DNA of 15,616 nt from an uncultured Gammaproteobacteria bacterium (lineage in GTDB: Bacteria; Patescibacteriota; Patescibacteriia; Patescibacteriales; JAGXOH01), in assembly GCA_964644045.1 (NCBI GenBank), contig CAZXUK010000006.1:42659-58274 (forward strand), read 5' to 3'. This document shows positions 3,382 through 15,616 of the stretch, one piece after another; the first letter of the stretch is position 1, and every line of letters starts with the position of its first letter. A model generated the notes under the pieces. It was not told the DNA's origin, did no database searches, and saw nothing but the letters and a program-made list of their open reading frames with translations. The translations under genes and the position numbers were made by a program.

Positions 3382-4503
3382 ATGTTTGAAGCTTTTATCA
3401 ACACTTTTTTAGTAGTATTGGGATTAAATTTTTTTATTTTCGCCGTGGTAATAGGCGTAAATTGGGCATTTAAACACAGGCAGGCCGTTTATCTCGGCTT
3501 ATCAGCCATTTTTATCTCTTTGGTCGGTAGTATTATTTACCTGGGGTTTGTTTTTCATACCCAGGGATTTTGGCCAATTTGGTTTTTGGTTCTGGCCGCT
3601 CTGGTCGCCTTGATTTGGGGGATTTGGGAATATTTTTTTATTACCATTCCCGCCGACCCTCCTTCTGTCGGGGTAATGACAGTTTGGGGGGAGAGAAGGC
3701 TGATTTACGGCCAAGACAGTTATGGAGAGTGGAAGGCTATGGGGGTTTATTATGTCAAAGAGGGTTTACGTCTTCATGCTCCTTATTTTCCTTTTTTTCT
3801 CGGTTATATTGTGATTGATATAACCAAGAGGAACAGGGATATGAATCCAATGACCGTTTGGTGTAAACGGGAAGAGGAGTCTGATTCCGACCCTTCTCTT
3901 ATGGGTGCCCAGATGGCTGTATCTATTTCTTACACCTGGACCCCCGACCCTGATCGGCTGTATATGTTTTTACAGACCGGTGAAGACGAGGGAGTAGAAG
4001 AGATTATCCCGGATGTGATAGAGGAAGACGTCCGTGAGGTGGCCCAGGAAAATTATTGGGAAAAATTTCTTCCTCTTCACAAAGATTTGACTAAAAAAAT
4101 TATAAATCGTCTAACCGGAGAAAAGGAAGCTACGGCGATTATCAACGGCTCGAGTGACACCCAGGCAATGGGAATTTTAGTTTATCGTCTTAATGTCACT
4201 TCCATTAATCCGGTAGATGAAGAATTGAAAGAGTCAATTACCGCCTTTTCCCGGGAGAAAAGAGAGAGACACGCCGAGGTTTATGAAATGCAGACCGAAG
4301 CCCAGCAAGCCAATGTTCTTATGGAAGAGGCTCGCCAGGCCGGAAATCCCATTACCTTCGACCAGGCCTATGCCTTGTTAAAAAGGTATAAGCTGGCCAG
4401 AGAAGGGAAAATCAATGCTCGTCATTTTTCCTTTGAAGGACTGGACTCTTTAATCCCGGCATTAAAGAGTCTTGCAGGAGAAGGTAAAAAAATTATTAGT
4501 TAG
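3382..4503 (+). CDS. SPFH/band-7 (stomatin/prohibitin/HflK-like) membrane protein with about three N-terminal TM helices
   Basis: 373 aa. Strong RBS aaagaggagg. Hydrophobic N-terminal segments are followed by a GERR..GLRLHAPYFPF...ISYTWTPDPDRLYMF core resembling the SPFH domain, then a charged coiled-coil-like tail. Confidence 0.7.
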   Translation: MFEAFINTFLVVLGLNFFIFAVVIGVNWAFKHRQAVYLGLSAIFISLVGSIIYLGFVFHTQGFWPIWFLVLAALVALIWGIWEYFFITIPADPPSVGVMTVWGERRLIYGQDSYGEWKAMGVYYVKEGLRLHAPYFPFFLGYIVIDITKRNRDMNPMTVWCKREEESDSDPSLMGAQMAVSISYTWTPDPDRLYMFLQTGEDEGVEEIIPDVIEEDVREVAQENYWEKFLPLHKDLTKKIINRLTGEKEATAIINGSSDTQAMGILVYRLNVTSINPVDEELKESITAFSREKRERHAEVYEMQTEAQQANVLMEEARQAGNPITFDQAYALLKRYKLAREGKINARHFSFEGLDSLIPALKSLAGEGKKIIS

Positions 4504-4512
4504 GAGGCGAAA

Positions 4513-4956
4513 ATGGATGATAAAAAAACGGAAAAAGAGGATAAAAAGAGCGGAGCAATAAAAACCGTCTTTATCCTTTTGATTATTATCTTCCTAGTCT
4601 CTACTTTCTTTTTCTGTGCCAACAGTTTAACAGGAGAAGAAGAGACGAGGAAGACAAAATCGTCGGTGTCGGTGCCCCCCAAAACCAAGACAATCTCCAT
4701 TAATGAGGCCGGAGTATTCAATTTTGAGCTCCAGCCCTTGGAGAGTCTGGGGAATTGGTGGTATGTGGAGGAGGGCTTGAACTATTGTCTCTCTTCTGCC
4801 CGCAAAGATCATTCCTTTTTTGTGAAGTATAAAAGAGGTGATCTTGTTAAGATAGAGAAAGACAATGTCAGCCTCCCTGACAGAGCCGGTCCTTTTAAAT
4901 TAGTGGCCGGCGAACAGGAGGTAAAAATTACTCTGCTGGTAAGCAGAAGAACTTAA
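4513..4956 (+). CDS. Hypothetical single-pass membrane protein; possibly a short NfeD-like partner of the SPFH protein
   Basis: 147 aa. RBS taggagg lies 9 nt after the upstream stop. Lys/Glu-rich N-terminus, one TM helix (VFILLIIIFLVSTFFF), then a beta-rich C-terminal domain. The NfeD assignment rests on context and size only. Confidence 0.55.
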   Translation: MDDKKTEKEDKKSGAIKTVFILLIIIFLVSTFFFCANSLTGEEETRKTKSSVSVPPKTKTISINEAGVFNFELQPLESLGNWWYVEEGLNYCLSSARKDHSFFVKYKRGDLVKIEKDNVSLPDRAGPFKLVAGEQEVKITLLVSRRT

Positions 4957-5059: not shown

Positions 5060-5449
5060 ATGAAAAAAATAGGTATTTTATTATTTTTGTTCGTTTTTTC
5101 TTTTTTTCTTTTCTCTCCTTGTTTGGCTCAGAGCTCTAAAGATACTGAAGGCGGAGGTCCTGACAGCGGAGTGACAGGAGAATTCCCCAATCCTTTGGGA
5201 GAAGGAGTAACAGAAAGCCCGGAGCTTTTGATCAAAAGAATTATTAATGGAATTTTGGGAGTAGTGGGCTCTTTGGCCTTGCTTATGTTTATCTACGGCG
5301 GTTTGGTCTGGATGACCGCGGCCGGAAACAATGAAAGAGTGGAGAAGGGGAAAAATATCTTGATTTGGGCCACTATCGGTTTGGTGGTTATTTTCGCATC
5401 TTATGCCATAGTTAGTTTCATTATCGAGAGTTTAACCGGAGGCGGTTAA
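5060..5449 (+). CDS. Small secreted two-TM protein resembling TrbC/VirB2-type pilin
   Basis: 129 aa. Signal peptide (cleavage predicted near CLA/QSS), a Gly/Pro-rich soluble stretch, then two hydrophobic helices separated by a short charged loop (AAGNNERVEKGKN), and a Gly-rich C-terminus. Confidence 0.45.
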   Translation: MKKIGILLFLFVFSFFLFSPCLAQSSKDTEGGGPDSGVTGEFPNPLGEGVTESPELLIKRIINGILGVVGSLALLMFIYGGLVWMTAAGNNERVEKGKNILIWATIGLVVIFASYAIVSFIIESLTGGG

Positions 5450-5569: not shown

Positions 5570-6589
5570 ATGGATCAAAAGTTAAAAAATTTCTTAAATG
5601 AGAGCGCTCGTAAAATAGACCCGATCCTTAAAGAGTTATTGCAATCTTATCTGGAAAAGAGATTTTATAAGCTAATTGGTCAGCAAATTTCTTCCGGAGG
5701 CAAAAGATTGCGTCCCGCCCTGGTTTTGGCCTCGGGCAAAATGATGGGAGCGCGGGAAAAGGATTTGCTTTATCCGGCCACGGGGGTGGAGATTTTGCAC
5801 AACAGCACCCTGATCACCGATGATATTATAGATAAAAGCGAAGTCAGGCGAGGCAGGCCTACGGTTTGGAAAAAATTCGGTCGTTCCGTGGCCGAATGCG
5901 TGGCCATGGATTATGCGGCCACGGTTTTTTTGGCCGCTAATCGATCACCTTATTCCCAAGAGATTACCGAGATCTATTCCCGTGCCTTTAAAACCATTTG
6001 GAGCGGGGAAATTCTGGATATTTTATTTGAGCAGAAAGGTAGGGAAGATGAGCCCTATATAATTAAGAATCGTTTTAAGAATGTTTCCTTGAATTCTTAT
6101 TATAAAATGGCGGGGAAAAAAACCGCTGTTTTGTTTCAGGGTTGTTGTGAAATCGGAGGGGTCTGCGCCCGGGCCGGGGAAAAAGATTTGCAAACCCTGA
6201 GTGAATATGGTTATAATCTGGGCATGGCTTTCCAAATTCGCGATGATATTTTGGATATATTCGGGGAGGAGAAGGATTTTGGCAAAAAAATAGGCAAGGA
6301 CATAAAAGAAAGAAAATTGGGCAATATCGTGATTTTTTATGCTTTGAAAAATTTATCTCCTGCTGACAGAAAGAAGATTTTTCGAATTTTGGAAAAGAAG
6401 GAGATCGGAGAAAGAGAGATAAAAGAGGGGATTGCTTTAATTAAAAAAACCCCGGCTCATGATCAGGCCTTTGCTTTGGGTAAAAAATATATAACAAAAG
6501 CCAAAAATAATTTAGAAAAATTGCCTCAAAATAATTGGAATAAGATATTATTGTCTCTAACTGATTTTGTAATAGAAAGAGAAAAATAA
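5570..6589 (+). CDS. Trans-polyprenyl diphosphate synthase (IspA/IdsA family; chain length C20 or longer likely)
   Basis: 339 aa. Contains GGKRLRP, a first Asp-rich motif DDIID followed by xxxRRGRPT (short 4-residue form), and a second Asp-rich motif FQIRDDILD. Residues at -4/-5 before the first motif are small (S, T). Confidence 0.9.
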   Translation: MDQKLKNFLNESARKIDPILKELLQSYLEKRFYKLIGQQISSGGKRLRPALVLASGKMMGAREKDLLYPATGVEILHNSTLITDDIIDKSEVRRGRPTVWKKFGRSVAECVAMDYAATVFLAANRSPYSQEITEIYSRAFKTIWSGEILDILFEQKGREDEPYIIKNRFKNVSLNSYYKMAGKKTAVLFQGCCEIGGVCARAGEKDLQTLSEYGYNLGMAFQIRDDILDIFGEEKDFGKKIGKDIKERKLGNIVIFYALKNLSPADRKKIFRILEKKEIGEREIKEGIALIKKTPAHDQAFALGKKYITKAKNNLEKLPQNNWNKILLSLTDFVIEREK

Positions 6590-6615: not shown

Positions 6616-7473
6616 ATGAAAAAAAATATAGATTTATATAAAAAAGAAACAGGAAAATTCCTTGCTTTTTTAGAGGAGGAGATAAAAAAGACAGGGATGG
6701 AGGAAGAATTTTTTGCCTCTTCCCGTCGGATCCTGGAAAAAATATCCGCTTCCGTAACCTCTAAATGGCTTTCCGGCAGAAAATATTGTCGGACTTTTTT
6801 CTTGCAAGAAGCTTTCGGCTCTTTTTACCCCTCTTCCTATACCTCTGTTTCTTTATTTTTAGACGCTTTGGTTAATATTTCCGATGATCTTTGTGATGAA
6901 CCTTTAGAAAAAGAAGAGATCAGTTTGTATATGGCTGAATGCTTGAAGCTTTTGTCCTTACTTAATTCTTCTTCTCAGGCATCCCTACTACAGCCAGGTC
7001 TGGGCGTTTATTTTAGCAAATTATTATCCTTGGTTATGGCTGAGAATTTTTATAGGGAAAAAATTTCCCAAAGCGGGGGCTATAAGCAAATAGTTGAGGA
7101 TTCGTCTAAATTATTGTTAATTCGCGCTCAAGATATAGATGTCTTTACAGAAATTGCTTTACTTGATTTGGACTCACAAAAAGACCTTGATTTAATAAAG
7201 AAAATAGCCAGAATCTTTCGGGCCATAAATATTTTTAAAAAAGATATAAAAGACCTAGATTATGATCTTTCCCGCAATATCAAAACCATAGTCACCATAC
7301 TCCGAGATAAAGATATAGATTTTAAAAATTATACCCAGGATTTGTTAGAAATTTTAGAGACAAAAGTAAAAGAGTTGTCTGTTCCACAAAACAAAGACTT
7401 AGAGTCGCCTTTTCAAAATTTCCAGATAATGATAGAAAGAGAAAAAGAGGAGATTCTGGAAATGTTGGATTAA
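6616..7473 (+). CDS. Hypothetical helical protein with isoprenoid-synthase-like Asp-rich motifs (possible divergent squalene/phytoene-synthase-like or class I terpene-synthase-like enzyme)
   Basis: 285 aa, 26 bp downstream of the polyprenyl synthase with no promoter between them. ISDDLCDE at residues 88-95 and NIFKKDIKDLDYD at residues 205-217 resemble the two Asp-rich motifs of head-to-head trans-IPPS enzymes (xxDDxxD and NIxRDxxED). Confidence 0.5.
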   Translation: MKKNIDLYKKETGKFLAFLEEEIKKTGMEEEFFASSRRILEKISASVTSKWLSGRKYCRTFFLQEAFGSFYPSSYTSVSLFLDALVNISDDLCDEPLEKEEISLYMAECLKLLSLLNSSSQASLLQPGLGVYFSKLLSLVMAENFYREKISQSGGYKQIVEDSSKLLLIRAQDIDVFTEIALLDLDSQKDLDLIKKIARIFRAINIFKKDIKDLDYDLSRNIKTIVTILRDKDIDFKNYTQDLLEILETKVKELSVPQNKDLESPFQNFQIMIEREKEEILEMLD

Positions 7474-7510: not shown

Positions 7511-7939
7511 ATGCTTTTAAACTCTGATTTAAAAATTGCTGTGGGCAGTGTAATTGTTTATGACAATAAAGTTTTGATACTAAAAAGAAACGAGGATGAA
7601 GAAGTTCTTCCCGGCCTTTGGGAGCTGCCCAGCGGAAAACAAGAAGAGGGAGAGAATCGGGAAGAAAGTTTGATAAGGGAGGTTAAGGAGGAGACCGGTT
7701 TGGATATAGAAATAATTGCTTTCCTCAGTAGCTTTACTTACAAAGTTAAGAAAGGAAAAACAACCAAAAACATAATTCAATTCAATTTTTTGGTTAAGCC
7801 CGGGGATGCTTCTCCGGTTGTTAAATTAAGTTCTGAGCATTCCGAGTATAAATGGATCGGAGCCAAAGATCTGGAAAAAGCCGAATTAAGCAAGCAAATA
7901 AAAAAAGTTATTAATAAATATTTTCAAACTTATTTATGA
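7511..7939 (+). CDS. Nudix hydrolase
   Basis: 142 aa. Canonical Nudix box GKQEEGENREESLIREVKEETGL (G-x5-E-x7-REVxEETG). No Shine-Dalgarno site upstream. Confidence 0.88.
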   Translation: MLLNSDLKIAVGSVIVYDNKVLILKRNEDEEVLPGLWELPSGKQEEGENREESLIREVKEETGLDIEIIAFLSSFTYKVKKGKTTKNIIQFNFLVKPGDASPVVKLSSEHSEYKWIGAKDLEKAELSKQIKKVINKYFQTYL

Positions 7940-8893: not shown

Positions 8894-8922
8894 TTGACAT
8901 TTTATTTTAAAAATGTTATTTT
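8894..8922 (+). promoter_or_regulatory. Sigma70-type promoter: TTGACA, 17 bp spacer, TGtTATTTT
   Basis: Consensus -35 at 8894-8899, TG at 8914-8915 and TATTTT at 8917-8922. About 45 nt upstream of the strong RBS aaaagaggagg of the exporter gene. Confidence 0.55.
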
Positions 8923-8969
8923 GCAAGGTTCGAACTTTGACAATTTAAAACAAAAAAGAGGAGGATATA

Positions 8970-11528
8970 ATGTATACTCAAAGAAAATGGTGTGTTTTTG
9001 TTGTTTTAGCATTCCTGGTGTTTACCTGTTTTTTCGCTTTTATGAATATGCGGGTAAAGCCGGGCGGCATTGTGGATGATGCTGTGATGGCGGAAGAAGA
9101 TCTTGTTAACCAAGGCGGAAGAGTAATTGATTCTCTGCGGAGTCAGGGCCTAGCTCCGGGAGACGCGGCTATTTTTTGTCTGCCCTTTTTATACCGGGGC
9201 GAGGCCATGAAAAAGGATTTGGCCTTTCTCCAAGATTTTACCCAAAAATTGGAGAGGGCTTTTCCGCGTTACAAAGTCTTCAGCTTGGCCAATATGCCCC
9301 GTTTTCGGGATGTTGAGGACTCCTATTTGGAGACTCAAAGTTATGTCAGTCCCGAGGTGTTGGCAGATTTTGACCCGGGTGATTGGAAGCGAGAGGTACT
9401 CCGCGACCCCAAGGTGGCCGGGGTGTTTATTGCTCCTGATTTTTCTTCGGCCAATGTCATTTTAACCTTTCCCAGAGGTTATGACGAAATGCAGGTCGGG
9501 CGGGAGATTATGGAGTTTTTAATGGATAGGGAGTGCGCTTGGTATGAGTGGTATTTGATAGATGATATCAAGCTCGCTTCCCAGTTCCTGCGAAACTTTG
9601 ACTCTGAGGTGCCTGAGTCTCTTCAGAGAGATCAGGACAGGCACCGGACCGAGGACGGATCGATTAAATCGGTTCTGCCCGGTGGCTGGGTTATCGGACG
9701 AGTCCTTATGACCGGGGCTTTTTACTCCAGTCTAATCTGGATCTTGTCCGGCTCCATTATTTTGGCAGCCTTGGTCTTTTGGCTGTCTTTTGCCAACTTA
9801 AGACAGACTGCTATTGCTCTGGTTTGTCTGCTCCTGGCCCTGATTTGGACCCGCGGTTCAATCGGCCTGTTGCAGACCTTGGGCTTTAGTATTCAGGGAA
9901 AAATGCTTTACGAGACAGTTTATTTCGTTTTAGTGTTTACTTCCCTGATTGTCTCCGGGATTTCCTTTGTAGAAAGGGTCTTTGACGCCTACAACGAAAA
10001 ACGCAAAGGTAATCCGGAACTGAGCCGGGCCGAGGTTTGGAAAAAAACCAAGGCCAAGGACATAGAGTTGATTGATGAAAGGATTTTAATGACCGGTCTG
10101 GTGGCAATCTTCGGATTTGCTACGCTTTACCAGATTGAGATCAGGCAGATCTTAGAGATCGGCTTTTTCTCCGCCTTGGGACTGGTTTTCCTTTTACTTT
10201 TCACTCTTTACCTGGTTCCGGCTGTCCATATTTTAGTCGGAGGTGAGCATTCTCGGCAAGAGAATTCAATTCCGGATAAATGGTGGCGGATCTTGGATTG
10301 GCTGGTTCGGAAAAGTTTCCAACTGGCCACTCCTAAAAATAGAGAGTTTAGAAAAAAAGGCTGGAGCGCGGTCGCGGTAGTGGCCGTTTTGTTTCTGCTT
10401 ATGTCTTCCTTGGTGGCTTCCGACCATGTCGGTCCTTCCAAGGGTTTTAGTTTTGTGGATATCAAAACCGAACCCTTGGAGTTTATTAAGGACACTTTGG
10501 TCTATGAGGCCTCAGAGGAGATTAACAGAAAAGATAACTACGGCTTTGACCGGGCCATGTTCGTGATCCAAAGTAAAAAGGAAGGAGACACTCCGGCTGT
10601 TTATCGCCCCGAGTTTTTAAGGGAGGTAGATAGTTTTCAAGAGACCATAGCCGAAGACCCTTACCTGAAAGGAAAAATCAGGTATATTTATTCGGTTCTG
10701 GATATTCTGGAGATTTTATGCCGGGAAAATTACGGCCATCACTTGCCCCAAACTCAAGCTGAAGCGGCTGACAGCCTTCGGCTTATACGATCCGAGATCG
10801 GGATTACCGGCCAAAGGCAGTTATGGAGCCGGGAGGCTTTGATAGTCCAGGTGTCGGTATCCAGCACCAATTCCAATATTCAGGAGTTTGTGCTTAACCG
10901 GGTGCTGGAGATATCCGGGGAAAGTTTTCCTGACCTAAAAGTGCATACTTTTGGCAAGGTGGCTATGTATGCCCGTTCAGACAAATATTTGCGGGAGAGG
11001 AAGCCGGTTAACGCCGGGATGCAGATCTTCTGGATATTCGGGTTTACCTTTGCCTGGATTGCCTGGCGTAATCGGCGTTTTCGCAAGTCCCTGAAGGATG
11101 ATTTTTATCTTTCTTCCTTTAGAGCCGGTTTGGCTATTTGCCTGCCCTTCGTCTTTGCCTCCACCATGATAGCTTTTATTATGATGGCCATGCGCATCCC
11201 CTTAAATCAGGCCACGGCCTGCATTACCGCCTTGACCGTGAATGCGGCCATTGATTTTTCCCTTTACATAGTGGCTGATTATCAGGCTGCTTTGATTAAG
11301 GGAGGGGGATATTTGGAGGCGATTAAATACGCCGTCCTAACGCGGGGGCGAGTGGTGGTAATTGATGTGGCTATCAATACTGCTTGTTTTGCTCCTTTGA
11401 TGATTTCGCCTTTTGCTCCCATAGCGGACATTGGCTGGATCATGATGACAATGCTCATTTTTTGCGGTTTTGGGGCTATGGTGCTTTTACCCATGGTTTT
11501 GCCCTTGGCTGTGAAGGAAAACAACTAA
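8970..11528 (+). CDS. MMPL/RND-superfamily exporter (12 TM helices, two large extracytoplasmic loops; HpnN/MmpL-like size)
   Basis: 852 aa. The pattern TM1, a roughly 200-aa loop, TM2-6 repeats twice (second TM7 around residues 455-475, TM8-12 at about 690-850). This is the internal duplication typical of the RND/MMPL/SSD fold. Strong RBS. Confidence 0.75.
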   Translation: MYTQRKWCVFVVLAFLVFTCFFAFMNMRVKPGGIVDDAVMAEEDLVNQGGRVIDSLRSQGLAPGDAAIFCLPFLYRGEAMKKDLAFLQDFTQKLERAFPRYKVFSLANMPRFRDVEDSYLETQSYVSPEVLADFDPGDWKREVLRDPKVAGVFIAPDFSSANVILTFPRGYDEMQVGREIMEFLMDRECAWYEWYLIDDIKLASQFLRNFDSEVPESLQRDQDRHRTEDGSIKSVLPGGWVIGRVLMTGAFYSSLIWILSGSIILAALVFWLSFANLRQTAIALVCLLLALIWTRGSIGLLQTLGFSIQGKMLYETVYFVLVFTSLIVSGISFVERVFDAYNEKRKGNPELSRAEVWKKTKAKDIELIDERILMTGLVAIFGFATLYQIEIRQILEIGFFSALGLVFLLLFTLYLVPAVHILVGGEHSRQENSIPDKWWRILDWLVRKSFQLATPKNREFRKKGWSAVAVVAVLFLLMSSLVASDHVGPSKGFSFVDIKTEPLEFIKDTLVYEASEEINRKDNYGFDRAMFVIQSKKEGDTPAVYRPEFLREVDSFQETIAEDPYLKGKIRYIYSVLDILEILCRENYGHHLPQTQAEAADSLRLIRSEIGITGQRQLWSREALIVQVSVSSTNSNIQEFVLNRVLEISGESFPDLKVHTFGKVAMYARSDKYLRERKPVNAGMQIFWIFGFTFAWIAWRNRRFRKSLKDDFYLSSFRAGLAICLPFVFASTMIAFIMMAMRIPLNQATACITALTVNAAIDFSLYIVADYQAALIKGGGYLEAIKYAVLTRGRVVVIDVAINTACFAPLMISPFAPIADIGWIMMTMLIFCGFGAMVLLPMVLPLAVKENN

Positions 11529-11532
11529 ACTC

Positions 11533-11569
11533 GGGGTGCGGTCAACTCCTGTTGCCGCACCCTTTTTTC
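11533..11569 (+). terminator. GC-rich hairpin plus T-run inside the operon (partial terminator or attenuator) between the exporter and LolA-like genes
   Basis: Stem gggtgcggtcaac / gttgccgcaccc with loop tcct, then TTTTTT at 11563-11568. The RBS agaggagg for the next gene follows immediately. Confidence 0.65.
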
Positions 11570-11584
11570 TAAAGAGGAGGCAGT

Positions 11585-12355
11585 ATGAAAAGGATAATGA
11601 TTTTTCTTCTTCTGGGAATATTATTCGCTTCCCTTGCCTGGGCTGAGGGTTTTACCACTGCCCGGGACGTGATCGAAAAGTCTTACGAGTTTTATCGTCA
11701 GGGCGCGGAAGTGGAGTTTGAGAAGCTGCGCCTGGAGGTAAAATACGAGGATGGTTATTCGGTGAACAAAGAGTTGGAAAGGTGGATAAAATATAATCCA
11801 AAAAAAGAGGATAAAGTTTTTATCAATTTTACGGCTCCGGAAATGGACAAAGGGCTTAAGCTTTTGGTTCATCGCCGGCTTAGCCAAAGTGATTTGATTT
11901 GGCTTAAGATGCCCTCTATGCATCGCTCGCGCCGGATCTCGGGTCAGGACGAGGGCAAATATTTTGCCGAAACCGACCTCACCTATCGGGACACGGCTCA
12001 GCTGGTGGGGGAGAATACCAGCGACTATAAGTATAGCTTCGTGGATTCCGGTGACTCCAAATGGGTGATAGAGGCCTTGCCCAAACCGGGCATAACCGCT
12101 GTGTATGATAAAAGAGTCTTTTTCCTTAACGAGAATTATGTTATTGAAAAAGTTCTGTATTATCGCCACGGGCAATTGGGTAAAATCCAGCTAAACAAGG
12201 ACATAGTCCGGGAGGACAACGGGTGTTGGCGGAGTGACTCGGTTGTGTTTATTAATGAATTTTATAGCCGGGTAACTAACATAAAAATTCCCGAAAGGAA
12301 ATTTACCGGTTTTACCAACCCGCCGAGTTTTTCCCGGAGAGATTTAAGGAGGTAG
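11585..12355 (+). CDS. Secreted LolA-like 'outer membrane lipoprotein-sorting protein' family protein (periplasmic, not a lipoprotein)
   Basis: 256 aa. Signal peptide ending AWA/EG with no lipobox Cys. The segment FTAPEMDKGLKLLVH...DLIWLKMPSMHRSRRISGQDEGKYFAETDLTYRD matches the remembered signature of the LolA-like family that accompanies MMPL exporters. Confidence 0.55.
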   Translation: MKRIMIFLLLGILFASLAWAEGFTTARDVIEKSYEFYRQGAEVEFEKLRLEVKYEDGYSVNKELERWIKYNPKKEDKVFINFTAPEMDKGLKLLVHRRLSQSDLIWLKMPSMHRSRRISGQDEGKYFAETDLTYRDTAQLVGENTSDYKYSFVDSGDSKWVIEALPKPGITAVYDKRVFFLNENYVIEKVLYYRHGQLGKIQLNKDIVREDNGCWRSDSVVFINEFYSRVTNIKIPERKFTGFTNPPSFSRRDLRR

Positions 12356-12357
12356 AG

Positions 12358-13584
12358 ATGAGAAAAATTGTGATTCTTTTTGTTTTTTTTGTTCTTGCGC
12401 CTCTCTCTGCTTCTGCCTTGAATTTTGATCTGGAAATAGAAGGGCAAGCTTCCAGTTATTTCTATGAAGAAGAAGAGGTGCCTCTGGAAGAAGATGAAAG
12501 GTATTATGGGGAAGCAGAAGTGATTTTGCCGGCTCGTTTAAACGCGAATAATTGGGAGCTCTTGCTTGAGCCCCGGATTCGCGTTGATAGCGAGGAGATT
12601 AGCCAAGGAGGCGAAGACCCCCGGGATTTTCGTCGGCCCATAGTAGGAGTAAGAGAGGCCTATTTTGCCTTTTGGCAGGAGAAGCTGGAACTTCGCTTGG
12701 GCTACCAGATCGCTGATTGGAGTATGACCGATACGGTCTCTCCCAGTGACAACCTGAATCCTCTGGATCTAACCCTGATTCCGGACTGGGAAAGGCGGAG
12801 TATTCCGCTCGTGACCGCTCGTTACGGCTATGACACCTATTTGGAAGCGGCCTATAAACCCTTTTTTTCTCCCTCTTTTCTCCCTGATTTTAAATGGAAA
12901 CGCGAAAAAGAAGGAGTGGAGTTTCTAAAGCAAAAAGAAGAAGAGGACAAGGCCCAGTTCGCCCTGAGGGCGGGAGGCATCTTTTGGGGCACTGATTGGC
13001 AGATCTGTTATTACCAAGGTTATGCTGACAGCCCTTACGCAGAAGTGGAGCGTCTCACTCTCTCGGGTGTTGAGCTTCGCCCCCGCTATTCTGAGGAGGA
13101 AGTGGGGTCTCTGGGGCTGGCCCGGGATGTGTTTGCCGGAGTTGTTTTCCGGGCCGAGGCCGGATATTTCTCCCAAGACTACGGTGATGATTTTTATCAG
13201 TATGTGGTCGGCTTGGAGAAACACTGGCAAAGTGCCTTAAGTCTGGGAGATGAGCTTTTTTTCCTGGTTCAATACTCCGGGGAAGAAGTGGCTGAGGAGG
13301 ATGAAGAAATTACTCCTCTAACCGACTTTAGACGGATCTTTAGAGATTGCCTTTTAGTGAAAGCCTATTACCAATTCGGCCGAGGCAGTCACTGGAGGCT
13401 TAAGGTCCGTGGTTCCTATAATCTGGAGAATTATGACAGTTTTTGGGAGCCTGCCCTGGAGTGGAAAGGGGATCACTTCTCCTGTGAACTGGGGGCCCAA
13501 GTCATTGACGGGCCAGAAGAGAGTTTTTGGGGAGGATACAAGGAGAATGACTGTATCTTTCTCAAAACCAAGATTAAATTTTAA
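12358..13584 (+). CDS. Putative outer-membrane beta-barrel protein (secreted, C-terminal Phe)
   Basis: 408 aa. The ATG lies 2 nt after the upstream stop, with RBS aaggagg, so translation is likely coupled. Signal peptide ASA/LN. Many amphipathic alternating strands with aromatic residues (LELRLGYQIADW, FALRAGGIFWGTDWQICYYQGY, RLKVRGSYNL). The terminus IFLKTKIKF matches the OMP C-terminal signature. Confidence 0.55.
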   Translation: MRKIVILFVFFVLAPLSASALNFDLEIEGQASSYFYEEEEVPLEEDERYYGEAEVILPARLNANNWELLLEPRIRVDSEEISQGGEDPRDFRRPIVGVREAYFAFWQEKLELRLGYQIADWSMTDTVSPSDNLNPLDLTLIPDWERRSIPLVTARYGYDTYLEAAYKPFFSPSFLPDFKWKREKEGVEFLKQKEEEDKAQFALRAGGIFWGTDWQICYYQGYADSPYAEVERLTLSGVELRPRYSEEEVGSLGLARDVFAGVVFRAEAGYFSQDYGDDFYQYVVGLEKHWQSALSLGDELFFLVQYSGEEVAEEDEEITPLTDFRRIFRDCLLVKAYYQFGRGSHWRLKVRGSYNLENYDSFWEPALEWKGDHFSCELGAQVIDGPEESFWGGYKENDCIFLKTKIKF

Positions 13585-13596
13585 GGAGGACATATA

Positions 13597-13634
13597 ACCG
13601 GCGTTTACAAAATGTAGGCGCCGGTCTTTTTTTG
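13597..13634 (+). terminator. Rho-independent terminator ending the exporter operon
   Basis: Stem accggcg / cgccggt with an extended imperfect inner stem, then cTTTTTTT at 13626-13633. Confidence 0.75.
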
Positions 13635-14850: not shown

Positions 14851-15616
14851 ATGTCTTTTTATGCTCTTACAGGTTTGATTAACGGAGTAACAAGTGTTGT
14901 TGCCGGTTTTTTTATTTTAAAGAAAAATTTTAGCTCGCAAATTAACAAAGTTTTTACTTTTCTTTGTTTTTCCATAGCTTTATGGAGTTTTGCTTATTTT
15001 TTTTGGTTAAACAGTCAAAGCGCAGAAGCGGCCTTATGGTGGTCCCGTATTTTTATGGCCGGGGCTATTTTTATTCCCGTGTTTTTCCTACATTTTGTAG
15101 TTTTGTTTTTAGGGGCTAAAAAAATTAAGTCCTTTCTAAAATGGGTTTATCTATTATTTATTGTTTTTTTAGCTTTTGATTTTACTCCTTGGTTTATTAA
15201 GGGCCTTAAATCTTTTCCCGATTTTGAATTTTGGCCTGAGCCTGGCATAGCTTTTCATATTTTTTTATTCTTTTGGTGTTTGATTTGGTTTTTGGCCTTT
15301 TTTCTTCTTTTTGAAAAATTATTTTTTGAGAAATTAAAACCTGTTAAAGAAAATCAACTTTTTTATTTATTTCTCGGCTCTCTAATCGCCACCGTGGGAG
15401 GGGCAACCAATTATTTTCTGTGGTATGACGTTCCCATTCTTCCTATAGGAAATGTATTAGTACCTTTATTTGTTTTTGCTACATTTTATACTATTACCAA
15501 ATATAATTTTATGAACCTCAAGGCGGTGCTTTCCGAGGTGTTGGTAATTATTTTTTCTTTACTTCTTTTGGGAAATATTTTTGTGGCTAATAATATATTG
15601 GAATATATTTGGAATA
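14851..15616 (+). CDS. N-terminal part of a polytopic membrane sensor (7TM-receptor-type input domain of a signal-transduction protein); truncated by the window end
   Basis: The ORF is open from the ATG at 14851 to the last base. It was missed by the ORF track because it has no stop in the window. At least six or seven hydrophobic helices rich in F, W and L are separated by short loops. This resembles the 7TM N-terminal domains of membrane histidine kinases and diguanylate cyclases. Confidence 0.5.
   Translation, partial: MSFYALTGLINGVTSVVAGFFILKKNFSSQINKVFTFLCFSIALWSFAYFFWLNSQSAEAALWWSRIFMAGAIFIPVFFLHFVVLFLGAKKIKSFLKWVYLLFIVFLAFDFTPWFIKGLKSFPDFEFWPEPGIAFHIFLFFWCLIWFLAFFLLFEKLFFEKLKPVKENQLFYLFLGSLIATVGGATNYFLWYDVPILPIGNVLVPLFVFATFYTITKYNFMNLKAVLSEVLVIIFSLLLLGNIFVANNILEYIWN

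Follow-up and report, generated by a model that had tools for sequence, protein, structure and literature searches.

The closest systems described to date are AmeABCD of Castellaniella defragrans and a co-fitness cluster that combines DUF1302, DUF1329, BNR (COG4447) and RND (COG1033) genes. Deletion of ameABCD in Castellaniella defragrans lowers both monoterpene tolerance and dye efflux, and the co-fitness cluster, which is found in Shewanella, Kangiella and Pseudomonas with a COG4447 beta-propeller, has been proposed to export a cell-wall constituent. The locus described here lies in a 15,616-nucleotide (nt) stretch of contig CAZXUK010000006.1 (hereafter the window, meaning the whole stretch analyzed), and consists of three consecutive genes at 8970–13584 that encode an RND-superfamily transporter, a secreted LolA-like protein (the carrier) and a short outer-membrane-type beta-barrel. 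The three proteins occur strictly together, co-evolve and are under constraint in several lineages of Patescibacteria (the Candidate Phyla Radiation, CPR), where they are long-term residents. As proposed for its proteobacterial relatives, the cassette probably transports some hydrophobic or amphiphilic cargo through the cell envelope: the RND protein would pass it from the cytoplasmic membrane to the carrier, and the carrier to the barrel, which would act as a gate.

The three proteins and their association

All three open reading frames (ORFs) are on the + strand, at 8970–11528 (gene 1, 852 amino acids, aa), 11585–12355 (gene 2, 256 aa) and 12358–13584 (gene 3, 408 aa), exactly as called in an earlier, sequence-only reading of this DNA. 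That reading took them for an exporter of the RND/MMPL class, a secreted protein resembling LolA and a beta-barrel of the transmembrane type, and these identities hold. The matches to hidden Markov models that it expected were obtained, LolA_like clearly, MMPL weakly, and DUF1302, which Pfam misses, by profile comparison only.

The product of gene 1 is a transporter of the HAE3/MMPL type. Its hydropathy profile (a simple sliding window, not a dedicated predictor) has 12 transmembrane segments in the 1+5/1+5 pattern of RND proteins, with peaks at residues 7–25, 254–423 (five segments), 466–484 and 721–848 (five segments), and with two extracytoplasmic loops of ∼230 aa each (residues 26–253 and 485–720). 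The Pfam MMPL model is matched at 24.5 bits (cut-off 20.5), a marginal score over a single 76-aa stretch. The topology agrees with the 12-segment exporter of MMPL/HpnN size that had been described. The sole solved chain that matches by sequence is HpnN (6wu0), again marginally (E 0.006). Residues E315, Y318, D762, D799 and N803, all within predicted membrane segments, are invariant in a sequence comparison of nine homologues of 28–76% identity. They are candidates for a proton relay like that of TM4/TM10 in solved RND proteins, and would fit a working proton-coupled pump.

Gene 2 is assigned to the PF17131/DUF1329 type by profile. The Pfam LolA_like model (PF17131) is matched at 79.3 bits (cut-off 30) over residues 75–256, covering profile positions 2–184 of 184 and spanning the very segment from which a secreted LolA-like protein had been predicted; DUF1329 (PF07044) gives a partial match of 36.3 bits (cut-off 23.1). 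Sequence matches among structures in the PDB are 9tp6 (LolA3, 4e-9), 4z48 (DUF1329, 2e-6) and 3bk5 (7e-6). Foldseek searches of PDB libraries with a predicted structure of poor quality (weighed below) led to the same group: all hits at E ≤ 0.02 are in the LolA/LolB/RseB superfamily, and the top ones, 9tp6 (5e-11), 3bk5, 4z48 and 3buu, all belong to the LolA superfamily. The N-terminus is hydrophobic and resembles a signal peptide (…SLAWA/EG) with no lipobox cysteine, and the protein is basic, with an isoelectric point (pI) of 9.1. The NCBIfam LolA3 model scores 18.5 bits (cut-off 83), in the signal-peptide region only. A canonical LolA of the Lol pathway was considered and rejected, as the fixed neighbors are an RND protein and a barrel, not LolCDE or LolB, and canonical LolA structures are weak fold matches (template modeling score 0.25–0.33).

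The AlphaFold2 model of gene 3, built on a nine-sequence alignment, is all-beta, with a predicted local distance difference test score (pLDDT) of 76.9 and a predicted template modeling score (pTM) of 0.73. Alternate residues of the predicted strands form a hydrophobic face (mean Kyte-Doolittle +1.27) and a polar face (−1.27); the hydrophobic-face score is +1.14 to +1.46 in other copies from CPR contexts and +1.07 to +1.26 in diderm copies. The C-terminus, FLKTKIKF, has the alternating hydrophobic residues and terminal Phe of a beta-signal; F408 is invariant, and a similar C-terminus is found in all barrel copies. Together with a signal peptide (…LSASA/LN), the protein thus has the usual traits of an outer-membrane barrel, namely an export signal, a closed barrel, lipid-facing alternation and an aromatic-ended C-terminal beta-signal, and the barrel that had been read from its sequence is upheld by the model, the alternation and the invariant terminal Phe. 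Among homologues down to 35% identity, 63 residues are invariant, and residues 117–137 carry the signature motif QIADWSMTDTVSPSDNLNPLD. The protein is acidic (pI 4.5), opposite in charge to the carrier, which suggests an electrostatic docking interface.

Family membership of gene 3 was traced through P0010, a weak relative from the first search that is itself a bona fide DUF1302 protein (Pfam 80 bits). Comparison of the window barrel family with P0010 by hhalign gives 99.4% probability (E 3e-21, 299 columns), and both have D-x-VSP-x-DNLNP, a motif that lies between strands, as well as F-x-G-x-Y-x-x-ND…F, a motif at the end. Word-index searches returned at most 10 relatives for each of the three proteins, so the size of the barrel family comes only from a profile search run exhaustively against 1.84 billion representatives, which found 2867 relatives at E ≤ 1e-3 (134 at E ≤ 1e-30), counted as clusters at 50% identity. 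Of 79 sampled, 20 have a Pfam DUF1302 match. Because of the profile match to P0010, the shared motifs and these DUF1302 relatives, gene 3 is, as judged from sequence profiles, a short and divergent member of the DUF1302 superfamily beyond the reach of the Pfam model.

An acidic, low-complexity N-terminal region had also been described for the barrel. The acidic stretch exists, but it is not an N-terminal domain, since it lies between two early predicted strands (residues 28–36 and 49–56), is modeled with low confidence and occurs only in the nearest relatives of the window. A salt-in halophilic host as the explanation for this loop is unsupported, the pI values of neighboring proteins being neutral to basic. 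One homologue, in the Patescibacteria UBA2773 locus (L018, 9740–11146), is longer (468 aa) and has a lipobox-like start (…FFCFLSSC/AFEQ) that suggests lipidation; the window barrel has a plain signal peptide.

Related loci were collected from genome collections and exact-protein look-ups (12, non-redundant) and from a metagenome scan (17, of which ∼11 were new); they are numbered here with the prefix L. Every locus complete enough to show all three genes has them in the order RND, LolA-like, barrel, at locus G+C contents (GC) from 0.31 to 0.62, which is the outcome of the gene-neighborhood comparison that the sequence-only reading had proposed. Neighbor-joining trees of the three proteins are congruent, with the same groupings. 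No fourth gene is conserved across clades in the flanks of these loci, and a scan of viral contigs found no relative.

In the proposed mechanism the RND protein, with the proton gradient as its probable source of energy, would take its cargo from the cytoplasmic membrane by way of its two large external loops and pass it to the soluble, basic LolA-like carrier, which would dock on the acidic, porin-class barrel (18-strand class), the presumed gate in an outer lipid layer. We infer the energy source and the order of hand-off, and export as the direction is assumed from the RND family. Several observations weigh against such a relay. Gene 1 falls far under the NCBIfam cut-offs for HAE3 (TIGR00921; 66.3 bits, cut-off 351.9), HpnN (24 bits, cut-off 751.85) and MmpL3 (21.1 bits, cut-off 1400). 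The AlphaFold2 model of gene 2 is poor (pLDDT 54.9, below 50 for residues 67–143). Gene 3 has no Pfam or NCBIfam match and is outside the Pfam DUF1302 model (PF06980); its relatives P0004 and P0008 likewise have no Pfam match. No conserved biosynthetic neighbor across the loci indicates a cargo. Lastly, the cargo can be handed to an outer gate only if there is an outer lipid layer, and CPR bacteria are reported to be without one.

Residence in Patescibacteria and the envelope

Proteins identical to those of the window have been deposited from metagenome-assembled genomes of "Patescibacteria group bacterium", and also occur on a 58-kb contig. The window encodes a T4SS_pilin (PF18895), a family common in CPR. 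The nearest labeled relative of the cassette is on a Candidatus Falkowbacteria contig (65–76% identity), and others are on a Candidatus Moraniibacteriota contig of 1,308,268 bp, a 75-kb Patescibacteria UBA2773 contig and a 55-kb Patescibacteria contig; Falkowbacteria and Moraniibacteriota are both placed in the Parcubacteria group. Most of the close relatives come from CPR assemblies.

The cassette in the window has a GC of 0.475, against ∼0.39 in the flanks, and at each of the five CPR loci for which it was measured the cassette is richer in GC than its flanks; at the two diderm loci flank GC is similar or higher. Recent transfer as the cause of this step was rejected, because third-position GC falls within the range of host genes and tracks each host. 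In the window it is 0.50–0.54 for the cassette, at the top of the host range (PurC 0.50, PurE 0.51, a methyltransferase 0.585, the other seven genes 0.34–0.49), and in L018 it is 0.26–0.29, with neighbors at 0.22–0.29. Divergence between the window and loci L006 and L013 is similar for the pilin (58% identity), polyprenyl synthase (48–50%) and cassette (50–63%). The ratio of barrel identity to RND identity is 0.82–1.19 for CPR pairs and 0.94 for a diderm pair (Nitrospirae and Syntrophobacteraceae), and constraint on the barrel is therefore unrelaxed in CPR. Composition, synteny and this equal constraint argue that the cassette is a long-term resident of CPR, neither contamination nor a recent arrival.

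If the cassette belonged instead to a diderm organism and had been placed in CPR bins by mis-binning or chimeric assembly, the GC step in the five CPR loci, lacking in the two diderm loci, would be explained, as would the close homologues that exist in diderm-like contexts, among them Nitrospirae and Syntrophobacteraceae. One or more of the bin labels is in fact probably wrong: L013 (CAZEHL010000029.1, GC 0.41), labeled "uncultured Gammaproteobacteria", has by ORF size and N-terminal sequence the gene set of L006 (alpha/beta hydrolase, AAA_14 ATPase, response regulator and FtsJ, with the polyprenyl synthase match confirmed by tblastn). It is probably mis-binned because L006 has the T4SS_pilin and the synteny of the window, and so this mislabeled locus points the opposite way. 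We regard such an artifact as very improbable, since the cassette is embedded in the 1.308-Mb Moraniibacteriota contig and in contigs of 55–112 kb, several of them labeled Patescibacteria or carrying CPR-like genes. Moreover, identical junctions were assembled independently from JGI and ENA samples, third-position GC follows the host down to the low values of L018, and flanking genes, the T4SS_pilin among them, match the cassette in synteny and divergence.

Diderm copies are found in Nitrospirae (beside a DUF2860 protein), in Syntrophobacteraceae and in a PqiA/FabA context. The DUF2860 neighbor is possibly another barrel, because it has a signal-peptide-like N-terminus and ends in …YKF. The module at one CPR locus, L009, is nearer to the Nitrospirae and Syntrophobacteraceae copies (44–50%) than to other CPR copies (29–40%), and the history of the cassette therefore includes exchange between CPR and diderms and, after it, a long period of vertical inheritance. 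A relic of horizontal transfer, decaying and functionless in CPR, might be expected to be patchy and rare among CPR, as the cassette is (at most 10 clusters in the word-index searches), and to be scattered in trees, where the CPR copies form no single clean clade. Decay is nonetheless highly improbable, and the least credible of the explanations considered: no CPR locus with sufficient sequence has any of the three ORFs broken, the invariant barrel residues persist to 35% identity, the balance of barrel and RND constraint is that of diderms, and the signals, ribosome-binding sites and terminator in the window are intact.

The host has a direct bearing on the envelope. Comparative genomics describes CPR as a monoderm clade that has lost the outer membrane and its markers. 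Cryo-transmission electron microscopy of groundwater CPR showed a surface layer (S-layer), no outer membrane, and cells attached to Gram-negative hosts, and a CPR predator cultured by enrichment has a Gram-positive-type wall. Most CPR are unable to make membrane lipids, and the source of these is unresolved. We found no paper on LolA-like or outer-membrane-type proteins in Patescibacteria. The proposal that a diderm envelope follows from the third protein consequently fails on the condition that the sequence-only reading had itself set, evidence of a monoderm host, because the window proteins and their relatives identify the host as a member of CPR, a group regarded as having no outer membrane. 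The protein identifications are unaffected. At the same time, the third component has the sequence and fold hallmarks of an outer-membrane barrel and is conserved, vertically inherited and constrained in several CPR lineages. Either the envelope of those lineages differs from what is assumed, or the barrel works elsewhere, for example at the interface with a host. It is unlikely that the barrel is inserted in the outer membrane of a Gram-negative host, so that RND protein, carrier and barrel form a conduit between cells by which a lipid-auxotrophic epibiont would exchange or acquire membrane lipids or other hydrophobes, or that some lineages of the Parcubacteria group have an unrecognized outer lipid layer.

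The former would have the Sec-exported barrel enter the outer membrane of the host where the two cells are in contact. That membrane would then serve the cassette as its outer membrane, with lipids or other hydrophobes passing between host and epibiont. Attachment of outer-membrane-less CPR cells to Gram-negative hosts, the inability of most CPR to make membrane lipids, and the full membrane-type features of CPR barrels would all suit this arrangement, and insertion from the CPR side would, on topological grounds, leave the barrel with its carrier-facing side turned to the epibiont. The affinity of the L009 module with Nitrospirae and Syntrophobacteraceae copies also fits gene exchange with diderm neighbors. 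We consider it unlikely, however, given that no precedent is known for a monomeric porin-class barrel entering the outer membrane of another cell from outside through its lipopolysaccharide leaflet, that RND pumps are known as exporters and not importers, and that no sequence signal for targeting another cell was found.

The latter would mean that some Patescibacteria have an outer lipid layer of their own, whether retained, re-acquired or unconventional, with the cassette working as in diderms. The conserved beta-signal-like C-terminus and hydrophobic belt of the barrels are what such a layer would call for, the LolA-like carrier has no anchor and is soluble, like a periplasmic protein, few CPR have been imaged, and most of their envelopes are undescribed. 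This too is improbable, slightly more so than deployment in a host membrane: the CPR cells that have been imaged are without an outer membrane, comparative genomics points to a monoderm clade, and no outer-membrane biogenesis gene was noticed in the 15–21 kb around the CPR loci (a small sample in which only some flanking ORFs were scanned).

Layout of the locus and neighboring genes

Gene 1 is preceded, at 8894–8922 (+), by a promoter-like site, TTGACA-17-TATTTT, in which the −10 element has a TG ahead of it (10 of 12 matches in a consensus scan). The site is followed by a strong ribosome-binding site for gene 1, AAGAGGAGG, read directly from the sequence at 8957–8965 (+). Between genes 1 and 2, RNA folding predicts a stem-loop of 13 pairs with one bulge, followed by TTTTTT (11533–11569, +; dG −24.8 kcal/mol, z −4.1), which ends 15 nt 5' of the start codon of gene 2 (11585); this interval contains the ribosome-binding site for gene 2. 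Only 2 nt separate genes 2 and 3, and the ribosome-binding site of gene 3 is inside the 3' end of gene 2. The cassette is closed by an intrinsic-terminator-like hairpin of 13 pairs with a T-run (13597–13633, +), found by terminator scan and direct reading. The earlier picture of one promoter with coupled translation is therefore only partly right: genes 2 and 3 are tightly coupled, but the conserved stem-loop between genes 1 and 2 qualifies it. Rfam and tRNA scans of the window gave nothing.

Stem-loops occupy the spacer between the RND and LolA-like genes at other loci as well, at 9170–9198 in L012, 9106–9142 in L006, 1426–1457 in L013, 9031–9059 in L014, 8887–8916 in L018 and 7669–7699 in L023 (all seven, with the window, are of one clade of the cassette and have z −2.1 to −5.7), and further ones in L025, L026 and L034 bring the total to ten loci. 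Their sequences are mutually unrelated, and a T-run follows the stem only in the window and L012. Overall, the junction of genes 1 and 2 takes two forms, either overlap or abutment without a stem-loop or a spacer of 55–91 nt with a strong one, while genes 2 and 3 overlap, abut or are close (at most 58 nt) wherever starts can be called. The stem-loop may act by attenuation or by stabilizing mRNA, and in this way set how much pump is made relative to carrier and barrel. A CPR-specific feature it is not, being present in L034 (GC 0.62) and absent from the Patescibacteria-labeled L009 and L017.

This layout bears on whether there is a relay at all. The barrel could be a substrate-specific uptake channel or a surface pore and the LolA-like protein its assembly or maturation chaperone, a role once suggested for DUF1329, with the RND protein loosely linked or unrelated. 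The constant tight coupling of genes 2 and 3, from which gene 1 is often set apart by a structured spacer, leans in this direction, as does the presence of the uptake porins OccD, OccAB and MOMP, besides the exporter AlgE, among the fold neighbors of the barrel. The probability of this is low, because the RND gene keeps its place at every sufficiently complete locus and co-evolves with the other two, and because ameABCD behaves as a unit, its deletion affecting both tolerance and dye efflux. A relay from RND protein through carrier to barrel is the preferred reading.

Upstream of the cassette, the window has the T4SS_pilin gene at 5060–5449 and a polyprenyl synthase gene at 5570–6589, with counterparts at 558–992 and 3744–4832 in the 57-kb L006; the neighborhood is kept in this CPR clade, with different genes inserted between the two. 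A polyprenyl-derived cargo, suggested by the upstream synthase in the window, L006 and L013, was not adopted, since these are syntenic relatives and the neighbors differ in other clades. Directly 3' of the polyprenyl synthase is a 285-aa ORF (6616–7473, +) with no Pfam match, the most AT-rich gene of the window (GC 0.34). Its Asp-rich DDLCDE recalls motifs of prenyltransferases and terpene synthases, and the product is possibly a divergent enzyme, or enzyme subunit, of isoprenoid synthesis.

A HisKA_7TM histidine kinase occurs within a few kb of the cassette in Patescibacteria or unlabeled low-GC loci: the window (14851–15616, +, running off the end), L018 (3852–6074, directly upstream), L009 (16647–18359) and L037 (10612–13023). 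Its recurrence could reflect a regulatory link or merely an abundant gene family. A small NUDIX hydrolase is beside or near the cassette in the window (7511–7939), in L014 of Moraniibacteriota (11187–11780) and in the diderm-type L024 (12419–12862), possibly by chance. Two loci of the Moraniibacteriota/UBA2773 clade have a TrmB-family winged-helix regulator upstream on the opposite strand (L014, 4957–5688, −; L018, 1114–1827, −). In one clade only, a protein of ∼460 aa is encoded directly 5' of the RND gene (L009, 2537–3922; L037, 3151–4542; L040, 3139–4539). It has an N-terminal membrane anchor and is beta-rich by eye; identity between the copies in L009 and L037 is 45%, and that of L037 has a weak, sub-threshold beta-propeller match. 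This protein, absent from the window, may be a functional counterpart of the AmeC propeller.

Comparison with known systems

For its individual parts, the cassette has relatives of several kinds. HpnN (6wu0), the HAE3 hopanoid transporter, is the solved chain closest to gene 1 and of similar size, and it moves a membrane lipid outward; the similarity is marginal, and HpnN needs no carrier or barrel gene of its own. For gene 2, the matches that are best in sequence and fold are in PF17131 (LolA_like/TP_0789-like), which includes LolA3 of Porphyromonas gingivalis (9tp6), and in DUF1329 (4z48); these are secreted, with a signal of the signal peptidase I type. No function, phenotype or partner has been described for LolA3, whereas the partner genes of the window carrier are fixed. 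Gene 3 shares only 6–10% identity with 18-strand channels (the OccD/OprD family, Campylobacter MOMP and AlgE), a likeness of fold and not family membership.

For the cassette as a whole, the logic resembles that of the Lol pathway (LolCDE-LolA-LolB), in which cargo is extracted at the inner membrane, carried by a soluble protein of the LolA fold and accepted at the outer membrane. In the window, however, the extractor is an RND and not an ABC protein, and the acceptor is a large barrel rather than the LolB lipoprotein.

The nearest match is with the AmeABCD type, which has in common with the window an HAE3-type RND protein, a LolA-superfamily periplasmic protein (with a DUF1329 signal) and a DUF1302-superfamily barrel, all encoded together. 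The role proposed for such systems is to export hydrophobic compounds or an envelope component, or to confer tolerance. The differences are considerable. No counterpart of the fourth gene, the COG4447/Ycf48-like beta-propeller, is present among window ORFs of at least 120 aa. The window barrel has 408 aa, against 605 in the AmeABCD type, and is missed by Pfam DUF1302; the carrier, of the PF17131 type, has 256 aa against 451. The gene order is reversed, with the RND gene first, and the host is a CPR bacterium. DUF1302/DUF1329/RND systems are poorly understood, and the three-gene form without a propeller is defined irrespective of its host. As CPR make up a large share of bacterial diversity, the cassette also offers a clonable, three-protein handle on their envelope and on the traffic of hydrophobes. 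What is new here is a minimal, propeller-less form of the DUF1302/DUF1329/RND systems, made up of three genes and present in a CPR host.

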